Positions 1-56,040 of a DNA stretch of 64,000 bases are shown here, piece by piece. The notes beneath the pieces are model-generated. The model saw nothing but the letters and a program-made list of their open reading frames with translations. It had not been told where the DNA came from and did not search any database. The translations under genes and the position numbers were made by a program. The first letter of the stretch is position 1; every line of letters starts with the position of its first letter. Source of the DNA: a virus (lineage: Duplodnaviria > Heunggongvirae > Uroviricota > Caudoviricetes); IMG/VR virus record IMGVR_UViG_3300034072_002212, positions 30,417 through 94,416 of that record; one strand, given 5' to 3'.

Positions 1-292
1 GGAGACTGGAGCCCTTGGCTCCAAACTTCACTCCTGGAACTTGCGGATGGCTAATGTTTACGGTCCAGGTCTGGTCATCTTCTGCCTTGATCCCAAAGAC
101 GCACCCATGTGACTTGAACTTACTCACAAGCTCATGAGCTGTCTTGGTATCAGTGGAATAAGGCGGAAGTGCGACAAACTTCTTGTTCTTCATGTCGCGA
201 AGTTGATAGGCGTCGGTCTCGGTATCATGGATAACCACAACACCGAGAACCTTACGCGCTATTTCAGCATCCAGATCAGGACCAGGACGCAT
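1..292 (-). CDS. Hypothetical protein, N-terminal ~97 aa only; gene continues past the window start
   Basis: Minus-strand ORF with ATG at 292-290 overlapping the S21 stop (TAATG). Translation MRPGPDLDAEIARKVLGVVVIHDTETDAYQLRDMKNKKFVALPPYST... No recognisable motif. Confidence 0.35.
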   Translation of the reverse strand, partial: MRPGPDLDAEIARKVLGVVVIHDTETDAYQLRDMKNKKFVALPPYSTDTKTAHELVSKFKSHGCVFGIKAEDDQTWTVNISHPQVPGVKFGAKGSSL

Positions 293-555
293 TAGGCCGG
301 CTGACGGCGCAATGCCTTCTTCTGGCGACGAATCGCCTCCTGACGCTTCTTGCGACGAATCTGCCCCTTGGTCTCAACATACTCCTTGCGGCGCATATCG
401 CGGATAAGGCCTTCCTGCACCGCACGACGCTTCAGCGTCCTCATCGCAGAATCCAGATTCTTCAGAGCCTGCTCGGGAGTATGAGCTGGCTTGACTTCGA
501 CCGCAAGACCACGCTTGTGGATGTCGCGACCGTTGCCATTGTAGTGCTGTCCCAC
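292..555 (-). CDS. rpsU: Ribosomal protein S21-like
   Basis: The ORF has no ATG/GTG near the conserved S21 core other than the GTG at 555, and its first codon at 615 is TTG. The segment ...LAVEVKPAHTPEQALKNLDSAMRTLKRRAVQEGLIRDMRRKEYVETKGQIRRKKRQEA... aligns to the bacterial S21 pattern (ALRRFKR..K.G.L.E.RRRE.YEKP..RKR). The likely start is GTG at 555-553, preceded by AGGAGA 7 nt upstream. Confidence 0.6.
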   Translation of the reverse strand: MGQHYNGNGRDIHKRGLAVEVKPAHTPEQALKNLDSAMRTLKRRAVQEGLIRDMRRKEYVETKGQIRRKKRQEAIRRQKKALRRQPA

Positions 556-673
556 TGTGGGATCTCCTGTTGGTGTTAACTTTATTACTCTACTTATATG
601 ACCCCAAGAACTCAATATTCTGGTTGACGTCGTGTGACACTCTCGTTACGGAATTGCCCTGAAAGGAGAACCT

Positions 674-1003: not shown

Positions 1004-1326
1004 TCACCGGCACCCTCGCGGCTTTGCTGCTTGCCGGCTGCGGGGGCAATTCCTACAACCTCATCGGTCATGAAGTCCGCCAGGTCGAGGTCGTGAGCCA
1101 CAAGCCGCCCAAGCGGTTCTACGTGACGCTCAAAGATGTCCAGAACGGGCACGTGGAGGAAGTCTACGTTGCCAAGCGTTGCTGGGGCTTCGAGGACAAG
1201 GTCAAGCCCGGTATGCGCTTCATGACTCGCGTGGACATCTATCGCATCTCGAACGAAAAGAACGAGACTGTGGGCGAATCCATGGAGTTCAATTCGAGGC
1301 AGTTGAGCGACTACTTCTGCAGCTGA
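994..1326 (+). CDS. Small secreted lipoprotein, paralog of 674..1003 (lipobox LAGC)
   Basis: ORF 871..1326; plausible GTG start at 994 gives MRLITGTLAALLLAGCGG. The mature part parallels the upstream gene (EVRQVEVV...RFYVTLKDVQNGHVEEVYVAKRCWGFEDKVKPGMRF versus EVRGVEIA...ELHVTIREIESGQSWDVNLGEECSQYPLPMGQKF). It overlaps the upstream stop. Confidence 0.45.
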   Translation: MRLITGTLAALLLAGCGGNSYNLIGHEVRQVEVVSHKPPKRFYVTLKDVQNGHVEEVYVAKRCWGFEDKVKPGMRFMTRVDIYRISNEKNETVGESMEFNSRQLSDYFCS

Positions 1327-1893: not shown

Positions 1894-2673
1894 TCAGGTT
1901 GGATTCTCAGGAAAATCTGCTTGGTAGAAGATGTCCTGGAAACGCTCAGCATATTCGTCCCAGCACTCGATTTTGGACGTTGCGAATGTAATCCTCTTAC
2001 CCGCCAAGAGCCAGCGGAACGTGTAGAGGGCAATCTCATCCTCAATGCTCATTAGCCAGTTGAACAGCCGATTGAGACGCTCGAGGTAGAGGACATTGTC
2101 CTTGCCGTATTTCTCATAGAGAACAACAATATTCGCCACGGCTTCCTGTGCGAGCTGGAAGCGTTGGATGGTGTCCATTTCAGGAAGCGGCATGCCTGTG
2201 AGCAGCAAGTCCACGGGTGTCTGCTCGATGCCTTGCTCTTCCGCGAGACTCTCGAGACGTTCTTCGAAGGTCGTCCCGTCCAGATACTCCACGGGCCACG
2301 GCCGGTGATCGATCGACTGGAACGTGTCTGCGCTGTAGCCCTCGCCGCCATATTCGAAATGCGGTTCCATGAAGGCCAGTCGCGCTTCGGTCTTCTCGTC
2401 GGCGTCGAACTCGATCTTTTTGACGTTGAAGAGATATTGGCAGGCGTAAAGCTGAACATCCTTGTTCAGACTGCCGAGCCAGAGGAACAGATTGTTGGCC
2501 CGTTCGTCGATACTCTTGCCTTCTGCCATGCGCTCGGCCAGCTTGTCGCCGGCGGCGTTCACGATCTTGACCTGCTGATCAAGCGAGAAGAGTTTCTTGG
2601 GAAACTCGCCTTTGAGGATCTTGCTGGTCTTGCTCACGTGAACTCCATTGTTAGCTTTCACTCTAGCTAACAC
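1894..2673 (-). CDS. Hypothetical protein (259 aa)
   Basis: Long clean ORF. No recognisable motif. Confidence 0.5.
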   Translation of the reverse strand: MLARVKANNGVHVSKTSKILKGEFPKKLFSLDQQVKIVNAAGDKLAERMAEGKSIDERANNLFLWLGSLNKDVQLYACQYLFNVKKIEFDADEKTEARLAFMEPHFEYGGEGYSADTFQSIDHRPWPVEYLDGTTFEERLESLAEEQGIEQTPVDLLLTGMPLPEMDTIQRFQLAQEAVANIVVLYEKYGKDNVLYLERLNRLFNWLMSIEDEIALYTFRWLLAGKRITFATSKIECWDEYAERFQDIFYQADFPENPT

Positions 2674-2687
2674 AGGTGCTCAGTTTG

Positions 2688-2876
2688 TCAACCAGCAAAG
2701 CCCTCATCAAATCCCATGTTCCAGTAGAGGTATTCCTCTGAATCCCGCTCGTAGGGATTACGGCTCATTGAGCCACAACCTAGCCGCAGGGCAACCCCAG
2801 CAAGCCAACCCTTGTGATGGGCTTCTTTGAGCTTCTGTGGGCTTGTTTCAGCCGAAAGTTGTGAACTCGAGGCCAT
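2688..2876 (-). CDS. rmf: Ribosome modulation factor (RMF)-like small protein
   Basis: ORF 2688..2891, probably starting at the ATG at 2876. KEAHHKGWLAGVALRLGCGSMSRNPYERDSEEYLYWNMGFDEG parallels E. coli RMF ERAHQRGYQAGIAGRSKEMCPYQTLNQRSQWLGGWREA (AH..G..AG.A.R...C..PY......W..G). Confidence 0.5.
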   Translation of the reverse strand: MASSSQLSAETSPQKLKEAHHKGWLAGVALRLGCGSMSRNPYERDSEEYLYWNMGFDEGFAG

Positions 2877-3007
2877 GTCGACTTCCAACAAAGGGCCGAC
2901 GGGTATCGGTCCGGGTGAGATTCAAGACTATATCAGTCCCTCGGAGGGCGACTCGGATTGCCTTGTCGCTCCTCTTCAGGATATCAGCTTCTACGGTTTT
3001 GCCGGTC

Positions 3008-3424
3008 TCAGTCGAGACGACCGAGCAGGTCTCCAAAGAGCTCTTGCGTGTCACCTTTCAGGGGTTCCTCATACTTGAACAAATGCCGGAGGGTATCCAG
3101 CAAATAGCACCGATCTGAGGTCTTGCCCTTCGAGCGATCCAGCATACCCTGGATCAGGAAGGTGACAATCTTGTGGTCGCTGCGGATCTTCTCGTCGGAG
3201 AGGTCCACGCCATGAGCAATCAGAGCCGCTTCAACTTGGCGGAACACGGGGTTCGGCCCCACCCCATGTGCGATCTTGTTGTTGATCGGAAGGCTGAGCA
3301 CTTCAGCTGGGCCAGCAGTTTTGGCCTCTACTCCCCCATTGTCGTTCTGGCTGCTGATTGGCAGCTCAGTCGTCAGAACTCCCTGAGCGGCGACCGGCCG
3401 CTCAAACATACGCACAACACCCAT
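3008..3424 (-). CDS. Hypothetical protein (138 aa)
   Basis: ORF in the same orientation as its neighbours. No motif recognised. Confidence 0.4.
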   Translation of the reverse strand: MGVVRMFERPVAAQGVLTTELPISSQNDNGGVEAKTAGPAEVLSLPINNKIAHGVGPNPVFRQVEAALIAHGVDLSDEKIRSDHKIVTFLIQGMLDRSKGKTSDRCYLLDTLRHLFKYEEPLKGDTQELFGDLLGRLD

Positions 3425-3755
3425 AGAACCTCAGGCTCCATACTTTGATTTGGAACGAGGATTGCGAAGCTTGCGACCTAGCATCCTGCTGCTCGCCACC
3501 CCCTCGTGTCGTGCTGCGATATCAAGCTACGAAAAACACCAACGCCTTACAAGCGAAATTGTTGCTTGGTGTAAGATTTTTTGCGCCTTTATGTCTCCAG
3601 TTTCTGTGGATAACTGGCTTCGACCGCTGAAATCACAGGCTTTTTGACAAAGACAGGTGTTTAGAAATCTTTGAAAACGGTCGTTTCAGGACGCTAAGAA
3701 CGTCAAAGACAGGAGACCCTCACGCAACATTATGTTACATGAGGGTCAGCTTGCT

Positions 3756-4286
3756 TTAGCCTTGAGATGGCTTCTTAGGCGCCGGTGTGATAATCGTGAA
3801 CAACTGGCGTTCACTGCGGGCTACCGGACGCTCGAACTTGAACTCACCCACTTCTCTGAGAAAGTCCTGCATCACGGATGCGCCAACGTCCAAGTGGCTG
3901 ATTTCACGGCCCTTGAACTTGATGATCACCTTGACCTTGTTGCCTTCTTCCAGGAACCCCTGGGCGCGCTTGGCCTTGACTTTCAGGTCATTACTGTCTG
4001 TGGTCGGTCGCAGCTGGATCTCTTTGAGTTCCACGCGGTTTTCGCGATTCTTCTTCGCGTTCTCACGTTCCTTGCGACTCTGATCATACTTGAACTTGCC
4101 ATAGTCCAGGATCTTGCAGATCGGAATACCGTTGCTGATGTTGATCGCGACGAGGTCAAGTCCGGCCTCACGCGCACGGCGCTTGGCTTCGAGAGTTGGA
4201 ATAACACCTAGCTGCTCACCGGTGTCGGCAATGAGACGAACCTCCCTCGCTCGGATTTGGTCGTTCACCGCGTAGTTAGAATTCAC
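3756..4286 (-). CDS. infC: Translation initiation factor IF-3
   Basis: GTG start. IRAREVRLIADTGEQLGVIPTLEAKRRAREAGLDLVAI...ICKILDYGKFKY...VELKEIQLRP matches IF-3 N- and C-domain signatures over the full 176 aa. Confidence 0.85.
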   Translation of the reverse strand: MNSNYAVNDQIRAREVRLIADTGEQLGVIPTLEAKRRAREAGLDLVAINISNGIPICKILDYGKFKYDQSRKERENAKKNRENRVELKEIQLRPTTDSNDLKVKAKRAQGFLEEGNKVKVIIKFKGREISHLDVGASVMQDFLREVGEFKFERPVARSERQLFTIITPAPKKPSQG

Positions 4287-4345: not shown

Positions 4346-5602
4346 TTACTCATTCACCGCCTTGGGGTCAAAAACGACCAGCGGCTCACTCTTTCCTTCG
4401 ATGACATCCTTGGTCACACGTACGGTAGTCGCTCCCTGCTCCTTGAGGTCAGGAAGTTCATACTGGACCTTGATCAGACGCTTCTCAATCACGCTGCGGA
4501 GACCGCGGGCGCCTGTCTTACGGGTGATGGCATCCTTGGCAACTGCGCGAAGAGCTTCTTCGTCAAACTCCAGTGTGACGTTCTCCATCTGGAACATCTT
4601 CTGGAACTGCTTGACGAGGCTGTTCTTGGGCTCGGTGAGAACCGTAACCAGCTGAGTTTCGTCGAGTTCTTCCAAGTGCGTGATGACCGGGAGACGACCA
4701 ACCAGCTCAGGAATCAGACCGAACTTGGTGAGATCTTCAGGCTCAACAGTGGCAAGAAGCTTGCTGTTGTCCTTCTTCTCAGCTTCGCTCATCACACTGG
4801 CACCAAAGCCCATGCTGCCCTTGCCCTTGTTCTGACGCTTTGCGATGATCTCGTCCAGACCAACGAATGCGCCACCAACAATGAACAGGATGTTCTTGGT
4901 ATTGACCACAGCCATCTCCGCGTTGGGATGCTTGCGGTTACCAGTGACTGGGACGCGGACTTCGCTACCCTCAATGATCTTCAGCAGAGCCTGCTGAACA
5001 CCTTCACCCGAGACGTCACGGGAAATGCTCGCCGAGTCGCCGCGCTTGGCCTTCTTATCTACCTCGTCGAGGTAGATGATACCACGCTCTGCCTTGGCAA
5101 CATCATTGTCGCAGACCTGCAGGAGGCGCGTGATGATGGTCTCCACGTCATCGCCCACATAACCCGCCTCAGTGAGGCTCGTAGCGTCAGCGATGGTGAA
5201 GGGAACGTCCAGCAGCTTTGCGATGCTGCGGGCCATCAGGGTCTTACCGGAGCCCGTAGGGCCCAGCAGGAGGATGTTGGACTTCTCGAGCTCAACATCA
5301 TCGACAACCGGATTGGCGAGACGCTTATAGTGATTGTGGACGGCCACACTCATGACCATCTTGGCTGCGTCCTGACCAATAACATACTGATCCAGGAACT
5401 CACGAATCTGTCGTGGGCTGGGAATACCACCATCCTTGAGAGACATCTTGGTCTCTGCGTTGGTGTCTTCCTTGAGAATGTCCGCGCAAAGCTGGACGCA
5501 ATCGTTACAGATGAAAACATCTGGACCGGCGATCAATTTCTGGACTGCTTCCTGTGGCTTTCCGCAGAAGCTGCAGGTCAGATTTTTCTTCTTGTCACTC
5601 AT
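4346..5602 (-). CDS. clpX: ATP-dependent Clp protease ATP-binding subunit ClpX
   Basis: N-terminal C4 zinc finger (CSFCGK...CNDCV), Walker A GPTGSGKT and 418 aa length are all typical of ClpX. Confidence 0.9.
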
Positions 5603-5715: not shown

Positions 5716-7167
5716 TTAAAGTCCTGGGCGCGCATTCTGCATTGCGATTGCCACCTGAACGATGTCGTTGACGATATCTGGGTTCATTTCAAGAACTTCA
5801 ATGATCATCTCCTTGGGGGAACGTGGATCGTCATCCTGTGGTTTGGGCTCTGGCTTCCAAGCGTTGATAGCTTCCTGTTGCTGCTTCAACTGCTCTTCCC
5901 ACTGACCAAGAAGTTCGCGTTCGTCGTTCAGTCGGGCTTCCATGGTGAGAAGCTGACTATGGGCCTGTTCAAGAGCCTCACGGTCCTCCGCATTTTGCGT
6001 CCTCTGAGCTTCAACGTCCTGCAGTTCTGCCTCAATCTCACTGGCAATTTCAGCACGGATCGTATCACGGTCTAGCTTGGACTCTTCCTCACCAATGAGG
6101 TTCAGACTCTCCTGGTGGTCTTCAAGCAAGTTGATGCCTTCACCCTCGCCCTCGATGATCGTGACGCCAGTGTCATCACTGATGAAACGAGCAGCGCGAT
6201 CCTCTTCGGGTGCGATACTTGCGCCTTCGCCCTCAATAGGAGTCATCTCGTCCAAGACGGCATCAGCTGGCTTCTCAGAGAATAGGTGCTCAGCGTAGGC
6301 GGCTTCCTTTTCCTTGATATCCTCTTGTTCCATGAGCTTACGCACATGGTCAACCCATTCGGGCTTCATTGTGTCAAAGACGTTCTGAGGGATATTGTCG
6401 CCAGTGACCAGCGGCTCCTCAGCCTTGCGCTTACGAGCCTCCTGGTAATCCTTGAGCGAGATGCTGCCAGCGATGAACAAGCTAAGAGCAAGCGGGTCGA
6501 AGGCGATCATGATGATCACGATGATGATGCGAACTGCGGACTCAGGATCCCAGCCAAACAATTCCGCGACATACTTGACCGGACCCAGCTTGGCCTCGAC
6601 TTCAGCACCCTGCGTCTTCAGCGGCACCAGCTTGGTGTTTAGGTCATTGATCGCCTTATTATTCTCGTCAATACGAGCCTGAATTGCCGCAGCTTCACGC
6701 CTCTGGGAATTAGCTGCGCGGAGGCCCTGACGACCGGAAGTCTCGAGACTCTTGTCCGTGATCCTGCTGATCTGGTCCATGCGCTTCATCAGCTGGTCAT
6801 TCTCGGCTTGCTTCTGCTTTAGCTGGGTCTCCAACTGAGCACTCTGGATCTCAAGACCGGCCTTTGGTGCCGCCTGCTCAAGGTGTCCCTTGCTCAGATA
6901 GCCATAAATGCCAAGACTCGTGATTGTCATGAGGGCTGCGATGAACACGCAGAAGAGCCCGCGGAAATACCACGGTGCGCGAGGATTGCGCCAGTTGCTA
7001 TGAACCCACTTGGTGGCTACGATCTTGCCAACTTCAAGAGTGCCAGCCATGATGACCACACCCCAGAAGGTAGCAGCGAACAACGCACCCATACCAGCCA
7101 AGGAGAACCAAGCGGCAACCGTGCTGATTGCCGCTGCGACAAAGAATATGAAGATGATGAATGCCAT
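5716..7167 (-). CDS. Membrane protein with N-terminal TM helices, long coiled coil and acidic C-terminal region (483 aa)
   Basis: N-terminal hydrophobic segments (MAFIIFIFFVAAAISTVAAWFSLAGMGALFAATFWGVVIMAG), a second TM region mid-protein, Q/E/K-rich heptad-like stretches, then a D/E-rich tail. Confidence 0.5.
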   Translation of the reverse strand: MAFIIFIFFVAAAISTVAAWFSLAGMGALFAATFWGVVIMAGTLEVGKIVATKWVHSNWRNPRAPWYFRGLFCVFIAALMTITSLGIYGYLSKGHLEQAAPKAGLEIQSAQLETQLKQKQAENDQLMKRMDQISRITDKSLETSGRQGLRAANSQRREAAAIQARIDENNKAINDLNTKLVPLKTQGAEVEAKLGPVKYVAELFGWDPESAVRIIIVIIMIAFDPLALSLFIAGSISLKDYQEARKRKAEEPLVTGDNIPQNVFDTMKPEWVDHVRKLMEQEDIKEKEAAYAEHLFSEKPADAVLDEMTPIEGEGASIAPEEDRAARFISDDTGVTIIEGEGEGINLLEDHQESLNLIGEEESKLDRDTIRAEIASEIEAELQDVEAQRTQNAEDREALEQAHSQLLTMEARLNDERELLGQWEEQLKQQQEAINAWKPEPKPQDDDPRSPKEMIIEVLEMNPDIVNDIVQVAIAMQNARPGL

Positions 7168-31129: not shown

Positions 31130-32869
31130 TTATTCAGCGTCGGGATGAATCCCTGCCAGCCGCTGAAGTTCCTCACGCTCGTCGGCCGGGAGAGGCTCGT
31201 CGCGCACCCGGCGGGGCTTGGGGGCCGGAACCGCCTTGGCCACCGGCGCATCACCGTTGCCGGTGATCGGAGCCGAAAGACCATCGACCACACCCGACAT
31301 GCCCTTGCTCAGGTCAATGCCAAGTTCCTTGGCCAGCTCGTCCACGAAGGGAGCCTGGAGCCGGTAGCCCAGCAGAGCGTCAGTCATCTGGCCGGGCAGA
31401 CCGTTACCGCCGTTTCCCGAGGTCTCGCCCTCCTCACCGCCGAAGGTGCGACCGCCACCGATGCCGCCGTTCATGTGAACAACGCGGAAGCTGTCAATCT
31501 TCTCGATGGGCTTGCCCATCTGCTCGAGGATCTCAGGCAGCTTGTCGATGAGCTTGAGGCGGATCTGCAGCGCAGCCTGCTCAGGGCTCATGAGGTTCGC
31601 AGCTTCGTTCAGCGCCCGCTGACCCTCGGCCTCAACCTCGTAACGACGTGCGTCTGCCTCGACTAGGCGCTCCTTGGCCTTGGCGCTGGCGTCAGCTGCC
31701 GCGAGCTCAGCTTCCGCACGGATGCGGATACCAGCGGCCTCTTCCTGTGCCTTGGTCTCGGCCGCGATGACCGCAACCTTCTGGTCACGCTGGGCGCGCG
31801 CTTCGGCCTCAACGGTCTTCACCGCTTCAGCAGCCGCGACCGCAGTCGCGCGGGCTTCGTCAGCCTTGGCACGAGCAGTCGACTCTTCCTCGGACTTCTG
31901 GGCGACCGCAATGCGCGATGCCTGTGCCGCAATCTCGAGAGCCTGTGCGGCCTCGGTCTCTGCGACCTGAATCCGGCGCTTCTGCTCGACACGCGCTGCC
32001 TCGGTGGCCTGGTTGGCCTCGATTTCAGCGATGTCAGCTTCGCGAGTGCGCTCAGCGCGGATCTTCGCAAGACTAGCAGCCTGCTCGGCGCGCTGGGTCT
32101 CGACCTGACGCTCCTGCTCCAGGGTTGCGAATTCGTCCTGCTGCTTGATTTCGAGCGAACGCTTGTTCGCCTCGAAGTTCTTCTGCTCGATGGCGACGCG
32201 GTTGTCGGCCTCGATTTCGTTGCGCTCCTTGCGGCGGGTCTCGGTCACGCTCGTGAGCTTAGCCAGACCTTCAGCGTCGAACGCATTGTTGGGGTTGAAG
32301 TGCTCGACCGACGTCTGGTCCAGACCGGTCAGCGAGACCGATTCCAGTTCCAGACCGTTCTTCTTCAGGTCTTCAGCCGCTGTGGTCTGGACCTGCTTCA
32401 CGAAGTCGGCCCGCTTCTCATGAAGGTCCTGCATGTCCATGCCCGCCGCAACAGCGCGCAGAACGTCGACGAACTTGCCTTCAATCAGCTCAGCGAGCTG
32501 CTGGGGGTTGGTCGTCCGCTTACCCAGGGTCTGCGCCGCTGCCGCGATGCTTTCCAGATCCGGCGACACACGAACGTAGAACTCAGCCTTCACGTCAACG
32601 CGCAGGCGGTCCTTGGTGATCAGCGAGTCCTTGGCCTTGCGATCGACGGTGAGGCGCAGGGTCTGCATATTGATGTCCACAGTCTCGTGGAACACCGGCA
32701 GAATCAGAGCACCGCCGTCCTTGACGACCTTCTGACCGCCCATACCCGTGCGGACGAATGCCATTTCCTTGGACGCTCGCTTATAAAGCTGCGTCATGAA
32801 GAAGACAATCACACCAAGGACGACAACCGCCCCCAGGATGATCGCCCCAATAAAGGTGAGATTATCCAA
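31130..32869 (-). CDS. Flotillin / band-7 (SPFH) protein, YqiK-like
   Basis: N-terminal TM, SPFH core (ILPVFHETVDINMQTLRLTVD...) and a very long A/E/K/R coiled coil. 579 aa. Confidence 0.75.
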   Translation of the reverse strand: MDNLTFIGAIILGAVVVLGVIVFFMTQLYKRASKEMAFVRTGMGGQKVVKDGGALILPVFHETVDINMQTLRLTVDRKAKDSLITKDRLRVDVKAEFYVRVSPDLESIAAAAQTLGKRTTNPQQLAELIEGKFVDVLRAVAAGMDMQDLHEKRADFVKQVQTTAAEDLKKNGLELESVSLTGLDQTSVEHFNPNNAFDAEGLAKLTSVTETRRKERNEIEADNRVAIEQKNFEANKRSLEIKQQDEFATLEQERQVETQRAEQAASLAKIRAERTREADIAEIEANQATEAARVEQKRRIQVAETEAAQALEIAAQASRIAVAQKSEEESTARAKADEARATAVAAAEAVKTVEAEARAQRDQKVAVIAAETKAQEEAAGIRIRAEAELAAADASAKAKERLVEADARRYEVEAEGQRALNEAANLMSPEQAALQIRLKLIDKLPEILEQMGKPIEKIDSFRVVHMNGGIGGGRTFGGEEGETSGNGGNGLPGQMTDALLGYRLQAPFVDELAKELGIDLSKGMSGVVDGLSAPITGNGDAPVAKAVPAPKPRRVRDEPLPADEREELQRLAGIHPDAE

Positions 32870-35676: not shown

Positions 35677-37428
35677 CTAGCCATTCTTGGATGCGAGTTC
35701 GTTCACAACCATGTGATTGAGGTCAGAGATCCTGTAGGGCTTGCCTAGCACCTTGATCTTATGACTGCGGTCTCGCTTGAGCTCCCTAAGGGCCACTTCA
35801 GCATGACCTGTGGTGAAGATCACGGGTAAATCCGGACGGATATTGCTGGCAGCTTTGGCAAGCTGGAAACCATCAATGCCATTGGGCATCACAACGTCGG
35901 TGAACAATAGGTCAATGGGAATGTCGAGATTCTGAATGATCTCCAGTGCGCTTTTGCCATCTTGTGCGCTCAGGACATTGTAGCCCATTTCCATCAAAGC
36001 CTGCGCTGCGAGCTCTCTGACGCCGGGCTCGTCATCTACCACAAGAATGCTGGCCTTGGTAGCGTCGTAGTTGAAGTCTTCCTCGTCCCGCGTTTCTTCG
36101 ACCGTTTCTCCGGCTGTGTAGGGGAAGAGCATCTCTACGGTTGTTCCCTTGCCCAACACGCTGTCAATGAAGACCTTGCCGTTGCTCTGCTGACAGAAGC
36201 CATAGACCATGGAGAGACCAAGCCCACTACCCTTGCCCACGTCCTTGGTCGTGTAGAATGGTTCAAAGGCCCGTTCTTTGGTTTCCTGAGTCATGCCTTC
36301 GCCAGTATCACTGACGCTGACACTCACAAAGCGCGTGTCGTCAATGGAACGGTTTTGTGTCTTAATACAGATCCGACCACCATTGGGCATTGCGTCTCTG
36401 GCGTTGATGCCAAGGTTGAGAATAGCACTCTCGAGCTGTGATTTGTCGCTCAAGCAAAGCCAGACGTCTTCCTGGAGATCAATCTCAACAGGAATACTAA
36501 CACCGACCGCCCGCTGGACCATTTCCTGGACGCCAACGACGACCTCGTTGACGTTCAGTCGCTCGGGATGGAGTCGCGATTTACGAGAGAACGCAAGCAA
36601 TTGGCTCGTGAGCTTTTCTGCCTTGAGGGCGGCCTCGATCGCCATGGAAGTCTGACGTTCAATACGCTTTGCCACGGAGTTGTCTGGCAAGTTGGCCAGA
36701 CTCATCTTCGAGAGCTCGAGGTTCCCGATGATCACTGTGAGCATGTTGTTGAAATCGTGCGCGATACCACCGGTCAACTGCCCAACGCTCTCCATCTTTT
36801 GTGCCTGGCGGAGAGCATCCTGTGTTTTCTGCCGCTCTTCAATCTCTTGAAGGAGGCGCTCATTTGCTTCCTCGAGCTCTTGAGTGCGTTCGCGGACTTT
36901 GGTCTCTAGCAGTTCGTGAGCGTGGATAGATTCTTCCTGAGCCATTTTGAGCTCATGAATTATTGAAGCAACACCCAGCCATTTTACGAGGTTTTCGTTA
37001 TCATCCTTGATGGCTCGAGTGGTTGCACGGAACCAGCGATATTCTCCGTCATGTCGACGAATGCGAAACTCGGCTTCGTATGCTAACCCCTTGACATAAT
37101 GCTCTTCCATTGCCAGACGAATTACTGCTATATCGTCGGGATGAATGCATGTCTTCCAAAGATAATCATCATCAAGGGAGTATTTTACTCCCGTGAATTC
37201 AAACCAAAAATTATTGAGATAGGTGAGATTTCCCTGATCGTCTCGGGTCCAGATAATTGTCGGCGCAAGATCTGTGAGCATCTTGATATTGATGTCAGAT
37301 TTGATCGCCTTATCCACAAAACCCTCATCGCCCACTCCGCAGACAAGAAGACCTTGGGGTAATGGCCTACCTCCGGTCTGTCGCTTTGGCATCGAGAACC
37401 CCTTTAGAAGCGTAACGAATAGAACCAA
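35677..37428 (-). CDS. Hybrid sensor histidine kinase (PAS – HisKA – HATPase – receiver)
   Basis: H-box IAHDFNNMLTVI; ATPase DTGEGM...GSGLGLSMV; C-terminal receiver ILVVDDEP...DLLFTDVVMP. Uses a TAG stop. Confidence 0.8.
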   Translation of the reverse strand: MVLFVTLLKGFSMPKRQTGGRPLPQGLLVCGVGDEGFVDKAIKSDINIKMLTDLAPTIIWTRDDQGNLTYLNNFWFEFTGVKYSLDDDYLWKTCIHPDDIAVIRLAMEEHYVKGLAYEAEFRIRRHDGEYRWFRATTRAIKDDNENLVKWLGVASIIHELKMAQEESIHAHELLETKVRERTQELEEANERLLQEIEERQKTQDALRQAQKMESVGQLTGGIAHDFNNMLTVIIGNLELSKMSLANLPDNSVAKRIERQTSMAIEAALKAEKLTSQLLAFSRKSRLHPERLNVNEVVVGVQEMVQRAVGVSIPVEIDLQEDVWLCLSDKSQLESAILNLGINARDAMPNGGRICIKTQNRSIDDTRFVSVSVSDTGEGMTQETKERAFEPFYTTKDVGKGSGLGLSMVYGFCQQSNGKVFIDSVLGKGTTVEMLFPYTAGETVEETRDEEDFNYDATKASILVVDDEPGVRELAAQALMEMGYNVLSAQDGKSALEIIQNLDIPIDLLFTDVVMPNGIDGFQLAKAASNIRPDLPVIFTTGHAEVALRELKRDRSHKIKVLGKPYRISDLNHMVVNELASKNG

Positions 37429-37564: not shown

Positions 37565-37768
37565 TAAAGAAAGCTAAAAGGCCCGTCCTGTTCCGCGGTG
37601 GAGCCCATACCGGTTTGGCAAACCCTAAGGGTTAAGCCGCAACTGCCATTGCTGGCTCGTTGTCGTTGACATTTCTGTCGTTGGCCTTTTCGGATCCGAA
37701 GATCCCAGGGAACCACCCCTCGTTGTCTCTCGCAGCCGTTCGCGCACACGTCGATCCTGGTTCGGCCC
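37565..37768 (-). ncRNA. ssrA: tmRNA coding piece (5' acceptor strand, tag reading frame, post-stop helix)
   Basis: 5' end GGGGCCGAACCAGGAUCGACG at 37768. Resume codon GCC at 37684-37682. Tag stop UAA at 37633-37631, followed by the AACCC-UUA-GGGUU hairpin. Confidence 0.6.
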
Positions 37769-37815
37769 CTTGCTTCAGGATTGCTCCCGATAAGGTTTCC
37801 AGTATTGCCACCTGG

Positions 37816-37880
37816 TTGGTGGAGCCGGCGGGTACTGCCCCCGCGTCCGCTGATTGCTATTGAGCTTTGGTCATCAACAA
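37816..37880 (-). ncRNA. ssrA: tmRNA acceptor piece (T-arm + 3' acceptor strand + CCA)
   Basis: The 3' end ...GCGGG-GGCAGUA-CCCGC-CGGCUCC-A-CCA lies at 37816. The last 12 nt (CCGGCUCCACCA) match the E. coli tmRNA 3' terminus. Confidence 0.6.
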
Positions 37881-37887
37881 CCCCGCC

Positions 37888-37916
37888 TTTATAGCGCGCT
37901 CGTAACCAAATGTCAA
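37888..37916 (-). promoter_or_regulatory. Sigma70-like promoter TTGACA-N17-TATAAA(GG) driving the tmRNA locus
   Basis: -35 at 37916-37911 and -10 at 37893-37888 on the minus strand, immediately after the PAAR stop codon. Confidence 0.5.
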
Positions 37917-37919
37917 CAG

Positions 37920-38195
37920 CTATCCTACAAAAACGTCGCTGCTGCCTTGTGCAACCTTGCTACCACAGGCCACGGGGTCAGATAACCTGCCCTGTCCGCG
38001 TCCATTGACGAAGACTGTGGATGATCCCCTAGCCAAAACACTTGGATGACCACTATGTGGTGCCCATTTATCGCCTTGCCTGTGAGCCGGCTTGCCGTTG
38101 ATAAAGACGTCAGGGCTTCCCTGAACGTTTGGACGTGGAGGAGCGCCGGGATGGCCCGTGCATTTGTCTCCCATACGGGCCGCTGGCTTACCCAC
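37920..38195 (-). CDS. PAAR-repeat protein (spike-tip, T4 gp5.4-like)
   Basis: N-terminus (M)GKPAARMGDKC...HPG...VFINGKPAHRQGD...VFVNG are PAAR repeats. GTG start overlaps the upstream stop. Confidence 0.75.
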   Translation of the reverse strand: MGKPAARMGDKCTGHPGAPPRPNVQGSPDVFINGKPAHRQGDKWAPHSGHPSVLARGSSTVFVNGRGQGRLSDPVACGSKVAQGSSDVFVG

Positions 38196-54369: not shown

Positions 54370-56040
54370 ATGTTGAAGTGGATCTTTGAGAACAAAGCCG
54401 CAGCCGAAAAGAAGAAGCAACGCGAGGATGTTCTCAAGGCTGCTCTTGAATCTGGTGAGGCACTGGAGCGGGCCGCTAAGGGCACAATGAACCTGGCTCA
54501 GGATGTTACTGAGACTCTCCAGGCGAAGATTGATGACTACGCCGCGCAGATCGACCAAACCTCCCGCCTCCTAAGTGACGCACTCATGCTGGTCAGCGTC
54601 GATGGTGAGATTCAGAGCTTTAACCCAGCTGCTGAAACCATGTTTGGTTGGAAAAAGCGCGAGGTCATTGGCAAGAAGATCTCCACCATCTTCCAGTTCT
54701 CCCAAGAAACTGTTGTGAACAGTGAGTTCATGGAAAATCTCGTTGGCAAGGTCAACGACGATGATGAGTTCACGTCAGTCCACCATGAAGAGTTCATGGG
54801 CCTCTGCAAGGATGGTACCACGATCTACATTGACGTAGGCGCCAGCAAGTTCGTTCGCAGTGACAAGAAGATCTATTACATCATGCTTGTCCGCAACGTC
54901 ACACAACGCGTCAACAATAGCAAGATGATCCGAGAACTTGCTGAACGCAACCAGGAACTCCTGACTACTATTGATGCGTCCTCAACTGGTTTCATGATCC
55001 TGACCCCCGATGGTTCAGATTTCAACATCAGCTTCGTCAATGAGGGTTTTGCCAAGCTCACTGGTATGAAGCGTGCTCAGATCCGCAAAATGAGTATCAG
55101 GGATCTCTTTGGAGTTGAGTCCACATTCTGGGCTATCCGTCGAACCCTCATCGAGGGCACTGAAGGCCGTCACGAGGTTCAGTTTGAAATCGGTATGAGC
55201 CAGACCACTTGGTTTGAAGTCCACATCACCCCAGTGAAGAAGGGCATGCAACCAGTTCAGTGGATTTTGGTCTTCTATGATACGACTGAGCTCAAGAAAG
55301 CCTATCATGCGCTCAGCAAGAGTGAAGCGCACTTCCGAGCATTCTCGGATGCCAGCTCTGAAAGCATGATCATTCACGATTACAAGACCCTCATGGATTG
55401 GAACGATCGCGTAGCTCTGCTGACTGGCTACAATGACGCAGAGATCGAGAAGATGAACTTCTTCGACTTCCTACATCCTCTTCAGAGGGAAGAGGCCATG
55501 TCGAAGCAAGACCTCAGTATCGATGGCAGCTACGAAACCTTGTTCATGACCAAGACTGGTGATGTCAAGGAAGTCGCAGTGAACAGTCGTGCGATTGAGT
55601 GGGACAACGCTGAGGCACAGATCGCTATCGTGCGCGACATCACCGAGTTCAAGGACATCGAGACTCAGCTGAAGAACTCGAGGGAGCGTTACAAGACGGT
55701 CATCGAGAACACTATTGACATGGTGATCTGCTTCAACAGCAACTTTGAGATCACGTTCAGCAATCAGACGTTCCGAGACTACTTTGATGTGGAACTCGAG
55801 GATATCAATGGCTTCTCGCTCCTGGAAATCATCCCAGAGAGTGACCACAAGAAGTTCAAGGAGTATATGCTGAGTATCACTCCTGAACAGGATATTCGTC
55901 GCGGCGTTCACCGCGTTCAGCGTCATGATGAGACCCGTTGGCAGGATTGGATCGATCGTGGCATCTTTGATGAAGAGGGTAATCTGATCGAGATCCAGAG
56001 TGTGGCCCGAGACATTCAGCACCTGATGCCCAGCCAATAA
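54370..56040 (+). CDS. Multi-PAS domain protein (four PAS/PAC modules, no output domain)
   Basis: Four repeats of the PAS core pattern (for example VSVDGEIQSFNPAAETMFGWKKREVIGKKI and ILTPDGSDFNISFVNEGFAKLTGMKRAQIRKMSI). Confidence 0.65.
   Translation: MLKWIFENKAAAEKKKQREDVLKAALESGEALERAAKGTMNLAQDVTETLQAKIDDYAAQIDQTSRLLSDALMLVSVDGEIQSFNPAAETMFGWKKREVIGKKISTIFQFSQETVVNSEFMENLVGKVNDDDEFTSVHHEEFMGLCKDGTTIYIDVGASKFVRSDKKIYYIMLVRNVTQRVNNSKMIRELAERNQELLTTIDASSTGFMILTPDGSDFNISFVNEGFAKLTGMKRAQIRKMSIRDLFGVESTFWAIRRTLIEGTEGRHEVQFEIGMSQTTWFEVHITPVKKGMQPVQWILVFYDTTELKKAYHALSKSEAHFRAFSDASSESMIIHDYKTLMDWNDRVALLTGYNDAEIEKMNFFDFLHPLQREEAMSKQDLSIDGSYETLFMTKTGDVKEVAVNSRAIEWDNAEAQIAIVRDITEFKDIETQLKNSRERYKTVIENTIDMVICFNSNFEITFSNQTFRDYFDVELEDINGFSLLEIIPESDHKKFKEYMLSITPEQDIRRGVHRVQRHDETRWQDWIDRGIFDEEGNLIEIQSVARDIQHLMPSQ

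Follow-up and report, generated by a model that had tools for sequence, protein, structure and literature searches.

The 64,000-nt stretch of DNA analysed here (the window) contains a 62-aa minus-strand open reading frame (ORF) at 2688..2876, which raises the question of whether a huge phage encodes its own ribosome modulation factor (RMF). RMF binds the 30S subunit and, together with HPF, turns 70S ribosomes into 100S dimers. A sequence-only reading had proposed that the ORF, said to lie in an empty gap and to be easily missed by gene callers, is a phage copy of RMF that could park host ribosomes. The ORF is present as quoted, with an ATG start and a TGA stop within the coordinates, and both its coordinates and its translation (MASSSQLSAETSPQKLKEAHHKGWLAGVALRLGCGSMSRNPYERDSEEYLYWNMGFDEGFAG) agree; the E. 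coli RMF sequence used for that comparison was also correct and is identical to PDB 6h4n_v. The assignment of the window to a phage rests on its IMG/VR relatives and its gene content.

The ORF is a real gene. Among 5.8 billion proteins searched, 13 close homologues were recovered at 57–100% identity (contigs up to 468 kb), one of them identical to the query, and a profile search run exhaustively over 1.84 billion representatives returned 16 proteins at E ≤ 1e-3, one of which (667 aa, repetitive) was excluded from later alignments. About 25 relatives were found on metagenomic huge-phage contigs of 416–481 kb. The 13-member family has 17 invariant positions, identity across many contigs is 39–74%, and codon alignments of seven loci gave pairwise dN/dS values of 0.14–0.54, with synonymous sites close to saturation. 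The earlier reading had held that a lack of conservation in related phages would count against it; the ORF is conserved there. Its expectation about gene calling held only in part: JGI called the gene as a 'hypothetical protein' and most related assemblies carry a call (among them L001–L009), but an intact ORF was left uncalled in a 481-kb scaffold (L020; 5200..5379) and in a short contig (L021; about 1084..1263), in both of which it has a TTG start within the stop region of the upstream gene. The family is known only from huge-phage-like metagenomic contigs and IMG/VR genomes, unlike RMF, a search for which returned chromosomal genes, almost all from Gammaproteobacteria. A scan of 185,579 species genomes revealed no relative of the family, tblastn against isolated phages and plasmids gave no close relatives and only weak motif-level matches, and the sole PHROGs match of the 62-aa protein was phrog_38831 (E 0.19, function unknown).

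The surroundings of the ORF are not an empty gap, since it overlaps a conserved 68-aa gene upstream by 29 nt and the next gene begins 50 nt after its stop. A GGAAG sequence (2882..2886, minus strand), located 5 nt 5' of the ATG and inside the end of the 68-aa gene, is a putative Shine-Dalgarno site, and GGAAG or GGAAC occurs at the same place in two related loci (L005 and L004). An alternative TTG start at 2891 would yield 67 aa, and a Shine-Dalgarno sequence is absent there. The ATG is preferred because of the GGAAG at 5-nt spacing and because the MASSS/MAxNS N-terminus is kept among relatives of the 62-aa protein.

The resemblance to RMF was real but remote. No match passed a curated threshold of the RMF family, the check that the earlier reading had suggested: the Pfam scan of the 62-aa protein gave no match, and NCBIfam RMF (NF011162) gave 14.8 bits (E 0.019) against a cut-off of 40. 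Five of the 13 members matched Pfam RMF (PF04957) and five matched NCBIfam RMF, all below cut-off, with best E-values of 0.013 and 0.0083, respectively. RMF was nevertheless the only family that recurred among the weak HMM matches of the 13 members, and likewise in most of the distant relatives. No RMF was found among PDB sequences, whether the query was the 62-aa protein alone or the profile of its family. Profile-profile comparison with an alignment of 18 bona fide RMFs (hhalign) gave a probability of 59% (E 9e-5) for the 13-sequence family alignment and 77.5% (E 1.9e-5) for a 24-sequence alignment. The hhalign score was 28.2, compared with 9.5±2.1 (maximum 15.1) for 200 column-shuffled RMF alignments, about 9 standard deviations above these controls, and a reversed RMF alignment scored 5.7. 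When the window was translated in all six frames, a regular expression for the motif matched once; it never matched in 50 shuffles. The AlphaFold2 model of the 62-aa protein (pLDDT 83) places helices at residues 13–32 and 47–61, a predicted helix-loop-helix architecture, and a Foldseek comparison with 350,542 PDB chains ranked three RMF structures first (2jrm, 9iot_y and 6h4n_v; probability 0.90–0.99, TM 0.57–0.70), with all remaining matches at a probability of at most 0.12. The Foldseek E-values of the RMF matches were only 0.3–1, as expected of a 60-residue hairpin. The protein therefore has the helix-linker-helix fold of about 55 aa with the conserved packing core that characterizes RMF proper, and falls below every curated cut-off.

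The likeness to RMF exceeds chance. Because no curated threshold was reached, the case depends on profile-profile and structural comparison, with a fold that is very small and simple, and homology to RMF at the level of a superfamily is probable. The contrary view, in which an orphan family of helix hairpins came to look like RMF by convergence or coincidence, would account for every HMM match being sub-threshold and for the absence of RMF from the profile search of PDB sequences, and two-helix hairpins are common. We nevertheless consider it unlikely, given the distance of the hhalign score from the column-shuffled controls, the top rank of three RMF structures among all chains compared, the recurrence of RMF alone among the weak matches of many members, and the fact that the matched positions are the core positions invariant in both families.

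The comparison at the level of residues shows what was kept and what was lost. RMF (E. coli P0AFW2; PDB 6H4N chain v and 2JRM) and the 62-aa protein are alike in length (~55–62 aa) and in their helix-linker-helix organization, and have in common (RMF residue first) A12/A19, H13/H20-21, G16/G23, Y17/W24, A19/A26, G20/G27 and R24/R31 in helix 1, followed by P30-Y31/P41-Y42, W40/W52, G43/G55 and W44/F56. The kept core thus reads A-H-x-x-G-[WY]-x-A-G in helix 1, an Arg that ends this helix, an [NC]-P-Y turn, and W-x-x-G-[FW] in helix 2. Helix 1 is strikingly alike (AHHKGWLAG in the 62-aa protein, AHQRGYQAG in RMF), and is followed in the 62-aa protein by a four-residue insertion (LGCG) relative to RMF.

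The charge of the two families, in contrast, is different: net charge is −6 to 0 (pI 4.6–6.8) in the 13 phage-family members, with −2 and a pI of 5.5 for the 62-aa protein itself, versus +5 to +8 (pI 9.8–10.9) in the 18 RMFs. In the E. coli 100S ribosome, helix 1 of RMF inserts between h28 and h37/h40 of the 16S rRNA; Arg3, Lys5, Arg8, Arg11 and Arg15 bond to the 16S phosphate backbone; and the N-terminus intertwines with S7, the pocket being ringed by S2, S7, S9 and S21 (Beckert et al. 2018, bioRxiv 10.1101/382572). The N-terminal M-K-R-Q-K-R-D segment, invariant in the 18 RMFs, is replaced in the phage family by an uncharged or acidic tail, and the N-terminus of the 62-aa protein (MASSSQLSAETSPQ) contains no basic residues. 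The strongly basic character and the set of five contact residues are likewise missing from the 62-aa protein: Arg3 and Lys5 have no counterpart in the phage family, the position of Arg8 is Lys in 5 of 13 members, that of Arg11 is Glu in 11 of 13, and that of Arg15 is Lys or Arg in 10 of 13. Two further positions invariant in RMF have also changed, Lys26 to Pro, Ala, Leu, Val or Met, and Arg45 to Asp or Glu (12 of 13). The phage family conserves a basic patch of its own (His21, Lys22, Arg31, Arg39 and Arg44), so that contact with RNA or another nucleic acid is still possible. The 62-aa protein is not an RMF orthologue.

Comparisons beyond RMF revealed closer kin among other small phage proteins. 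Among annotated proteins, the nearest is gp45 of Agrobacterium phage OLIVR4, a 'ribosome modulation factor domain protein' (hhalign probability 95–97%, E 1e-10 to 3e-8) with homologues in phages Milano and 7-7-1; gp45 itself falls short of the cut-offs of both the Rmf/CrpP model NF041886 (20 bits) and RMF (19.6 bits). The Agrobacterium phage proteins have the motif NPYERxxEEYxxWxxG[FY]xxG in common with the 62-aa family and, like it, are phage-borne and near-neutral or acidic. They differ in being 46 aa long and without the long first helix that bears AHHKGWLAG, and their phages are ~68 kb in size, where the RMF-domain genes sit amid early/DNA-processing genes. Another relative, of 55 aa (P0027), lies in a T4-like context with endonuclease VII and RNA ligase 1. 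The family profile aligns at two distinct places in each of two larger metagenomic proteins, P0020 (155 aa), also among the nearest relatives, and P0026 (199 aa), which suggests that each may carry two copies of the RMF-fold motif; P0020 reaches 27.7 bits on Pfam RMF, just under the gathering score of 27.9.

The Rmf/CrpP family (NF041886) of plasmids and integrative conjugative elements (ICEs) takes in CrpP of Pseudomonas aeruginosa, for which a ciprofloxacin-modifying activity was once suggested but is now disputed. Its members are small, are found on mobile elements and have P-Y-x-x-x-[ST]-E-x-x-x-x-W-x-x-G-[FY] in common with the 62-aa family. The window protein reached the curated cut-off of neither this model, which it did not match and which only one of the 13 family members matched (E 0.062), nor NF041887 (Rmf_like_phage), which it also did not match and to which P0020 gave a weak match (E 0.12). 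Two Rmf/CrpP proteins of Methylobacterium plasmids aligned with the 62-aa family at a probability of 3–19% (13-sequence alignment) or up to 70% (24-sequence alignment), and both are nearer to RMF (probability 89–90%) than to the 62-aa family. The broad superfamily core, G-x-x-A-G ... [CN]-P-Y ... W-x-x-G-[FYW], is present in the 62-aa protein along with the profile kinship, and we place the protein in the Rmf/CrpP-fold superfamily as a divergent member. This superfamily therefore comprises at least three branches: RMF, the plasmid and ICE Rmf/CrpP proteins, and small phage proteins. The 62-aa protein belongs to the last of these, yet has the most RMF-like first helix there. RMF-domain annotations in phage records were already known, as were the NCBI models for the Rmf/CrpP family and fold, one of which is named for phages. 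A search of 50,697 phage records with E. coli RMF gave no match and no true RMF. To our knowledge, no firmly established function exists for superfamily members other than RMF, and literature searches on phage RMF, RMF-like phage proteins, hibernation in huge phages and CrpP/RMF returned nothing relevant on function.

The RMF-fold gene belongs to a block of four minus-strand genes spanning 3424..1894, in the order 138 aa (3008..3424), 68 aa (2848..3054), 62 aa and 247 aa (1894..2637). The 138-aa gene overlaps the 68-aa gene by 47 nt and is syntenic in all relatives. The 247-aa gene has a GTG start at 2637 with GGAG upstream; its protein has an apparent internal duplication (NNLFLWLGSLNKDVQLYACQYL... 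and NRLFNWLMSIEDEIALYTFRWL...), and its relatives (238–257 aa) are kept in all related loci, including those without the RMF-fold gene. None of these three neighbours matched a family in Pfam, PHROGs or NCBIfam. The 68-aa protein is basic (net +4, pI 10), with 18 homologues at 68–94% identity and a net charge of +2 to +5 across the family; its AlphaFold2 model is a six-strand small β-barrel (pLDDT 88), for which Foldseek found only generic small β-barrels of the Sm/Tudor/KOW/PilZ type. The 68-aa gene is frameshifted in one relative (L004).

The 68-aa and RMF-fold genes overlap by 29 nt in the window and by 8 nt in both L001 and L020; in L007 a 1-nt gap lies between them. Even in a distant locus with a different downstream gene (L010), the 68-aa gene is found upstream of the RMF-fold gene. 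Because the RMF-fold start always overlaps or abuts the 68-aa stop, and because of the pairing in this distant locus, the arrangement suggests that the two genes may be translationally coupled. Production of a fusion protein by frameshifting is unlikely, since the spacing is not constant (a 1-nt gap at one extreme, a 29-nt overlap at the other) and every relative has a start codon of its own. Upstream of the block, a consensus scan, the only basis for these features, predicted a terminator-like hairpin with a 15-bp stem (3715..3747, minus strand) directly after the IF3 gene and another strong one after ClpX; because of these hairpins, the four genes probably form a transcription unit of their own, separate from IF3. 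An operon with IF3 is unlikely on account of the 15-bp hairpin.

The same gene order (ClpX, IF3, ~130 aa, 68 aa, RMF-fold, ~250 aa, a variable gene, bS21 and Phage_ABA_S, with ClpS beyond) recurs in metagenomic contigs of 416–481 kb and in fragments, several of which are IMG/VR viral genomes. Two sister IMG/VR genomes of 465 kb (L022) and 462 kb (L024) have no RMF-fold gene at the corresponding position: 46–48 nt lie between the 68-aa gene and the ~250-aa gene (L022, 3001..4008; L024, 2995..4009), and no RMF-fold ORF was found in either 6-kb locus. The gene is thus dispensable, and its pairing with the 68-aa gene is not obligate; a module in which the 68-aa and RMF-fold proteins would always require each other was rejected on this ground. 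We conclude that the RMF-fold gene is a conserved but dispensable accessory gene in a clade of uncultivated huge phages (about 416–481 kb).

Genes related to translation and proteolysis lie nearby on the minus strand. They include bS21 (292..615; 38 bits on the Pfam model and 44 bits on TIGR00030), full-length IF3 with both its N and C domains (3756..4286) and ClpX (4346..5602), the latter two assigned with Pfam/TIGRFAM models; ClpS is found farther along in related contigs. A permuted, two-piece alpha-type tmRNA is located at 37577..37920 (minus strand; Rfam RF01849, 84.3 bits, and RF04321, 84.7 bits, both above gathering), a feature that ARAGORN did not report; a phage tmRNA of this kind may indicate an alphaproteobacterial host. 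Further genes in the window are those for GyrA, GyrB (by synteny), ribonucleotide reductase, a DnaB-like helicase and tRNA-Thr. Three genes, at 31130..32869 (minus), 35677..37428 (minus) and 54370..56040 (plus), are unusual phage cargo: their products are a flotillin/SPFH protein, a hybrid histidine kinase that combines PAS, HisKA, HATPase and receiver domains, and a protein in which several PAS domains occur. Next to ClpX, the gene at 5716..7167 (minus) encodes a protein of 483 aa for which membrane segments are predicted at the N-terminal end, followed by a long, acidic stretch that resembles a coiled coil; it is kept beside ClpX in relatives (421–473 aa) and matches no family above threshold.

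The explanation that we favour, with reasonable though not strong confidence, is that the 62-aa protein is a divergent Rmf/CrpP-fold accessory factor of the phage, a protein-binding protein of the host-takeover type and not a hibernation factor. With its rRNA-binding surface partly inverted in charge, the protein would most likely not insert into the h28/h37/h40 cleft and would not form 100S dimers in the manner of RMF. It would more likely serve as a small protein-binding module, for which candidate partners might be a basic protein, such as the co-translated 68-aa neighbour, or a host factor. Persistence of the 68-aa gene in the sister genomes without the RMF-fold gene speaks against an obligate partnership. 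Such a role would fit the small phage host-takeover proteins, among which the closest relatives fall.

Among the competing explanations, an action on translation unlike that of RMF, for example by binding the basic bS21 of host or phage or by blocking host hibernation, has a low probability. A translation-related target, given the IF3, bS21, ClpX and tmRNA encoded nearby, is possible but unproven. An acidic surface on an RMF-derived scaffold would suit such an action, the clade encodes its own bS21, IF3 and tmRNA, and the natural pocket of RMF is lined by S2, S7, S9 and S21 (bioRxiv 10.1101/382572). This evidence is purely circumstantial, and since synteny extends across the clade, proximity to translation genes carries little independent weight; moreover, the distant relatives occur in contexts without translation genes, and sister phages dispense with the RMF-fold gene while keeping the 68-aa and flanking genes over the 6 kb examined. 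The fuller version of this idea, that an RMF-derived, charge-inverted protein acts on the ribosome or on hibernation factors (at bS21/S7 near the RMF pocket, or against hibernation) as part of a takeover kit with IF3, bS21 and tmRNA, appears slightly less probable still.

A functional phage RMF, one that attaches to the 30S subunit close to the anti-Shine-Dalgarno region and causes or modulates 100S hibernation, is improbable. It would draw on the remote homology and common fold, on the first helix, on the location of IF3 0.9 kb and bS21 2 kb away with a tmRNA in the same window, and on the presence of S21 among the proteins lining the RMF pocket on the ribosome (bioRxiv 10.1101/382572). The proposal that a phage copy of RMF parks host ribosomes fares poorly against the rest of the evidence: the protein fails all curated cut-offs and is acidic instead of basic, most of the 16S-binding Arg/Lys residues are lost (of the five that contact rRNA, three are absent or inverted), the two invariant arginines Arg11 and Arg45 have become Asp or Glu, and there is no KRQKRD N-terminus of the kind that in RMF intertwines with S7. 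The gene is also absent from sister phages that retain the neighbouring genes, its closest relatives are small phage proteins in non-translational contexts, and a terminator-like hairpin separates the block from IF3. In addition, an alpha-type tmRNA would suit a host that is not one of the Gammaproteobacteria, the group in which the literature consulted describes RMF, and the phage records searched contain no true RMF. Ribosome hibernation by the 62-aa protein, as judged from its sequence, appears unsupported. Finally, a chance ORF lying between real genes, to which the short length, the two uncalled assemblies and the absence of a curated family match might point, has a negligible probability and is already refuted by the pattern of conservation, with dN/dS far under 1, a confident predicted fold, an SD-like site, and start codons tied to the stop of the gene upstream.

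The divergent accessory factor that we favour has consequences for how such genes are named and studied. The 62-aa family forms a divergent branch of the Rmf/CrpP-fold superfamily that is specific to huge phages, and the fold-derived name 'RMF domain protein' should not be taken to imply ribosome hibernation, from which the sequence evidence for this protein appears to point away. Should the protein nevertheless act on ribosomes, it would be the first phage-encoded RMF relative with a demonstrated role, and ribosome hibernation would, if this were true, join the steps of translation that huge phages manipulate. The inversion of charge on a conserved scaffold provides a clear and testable contrast for the role of this fold on mobile elements.
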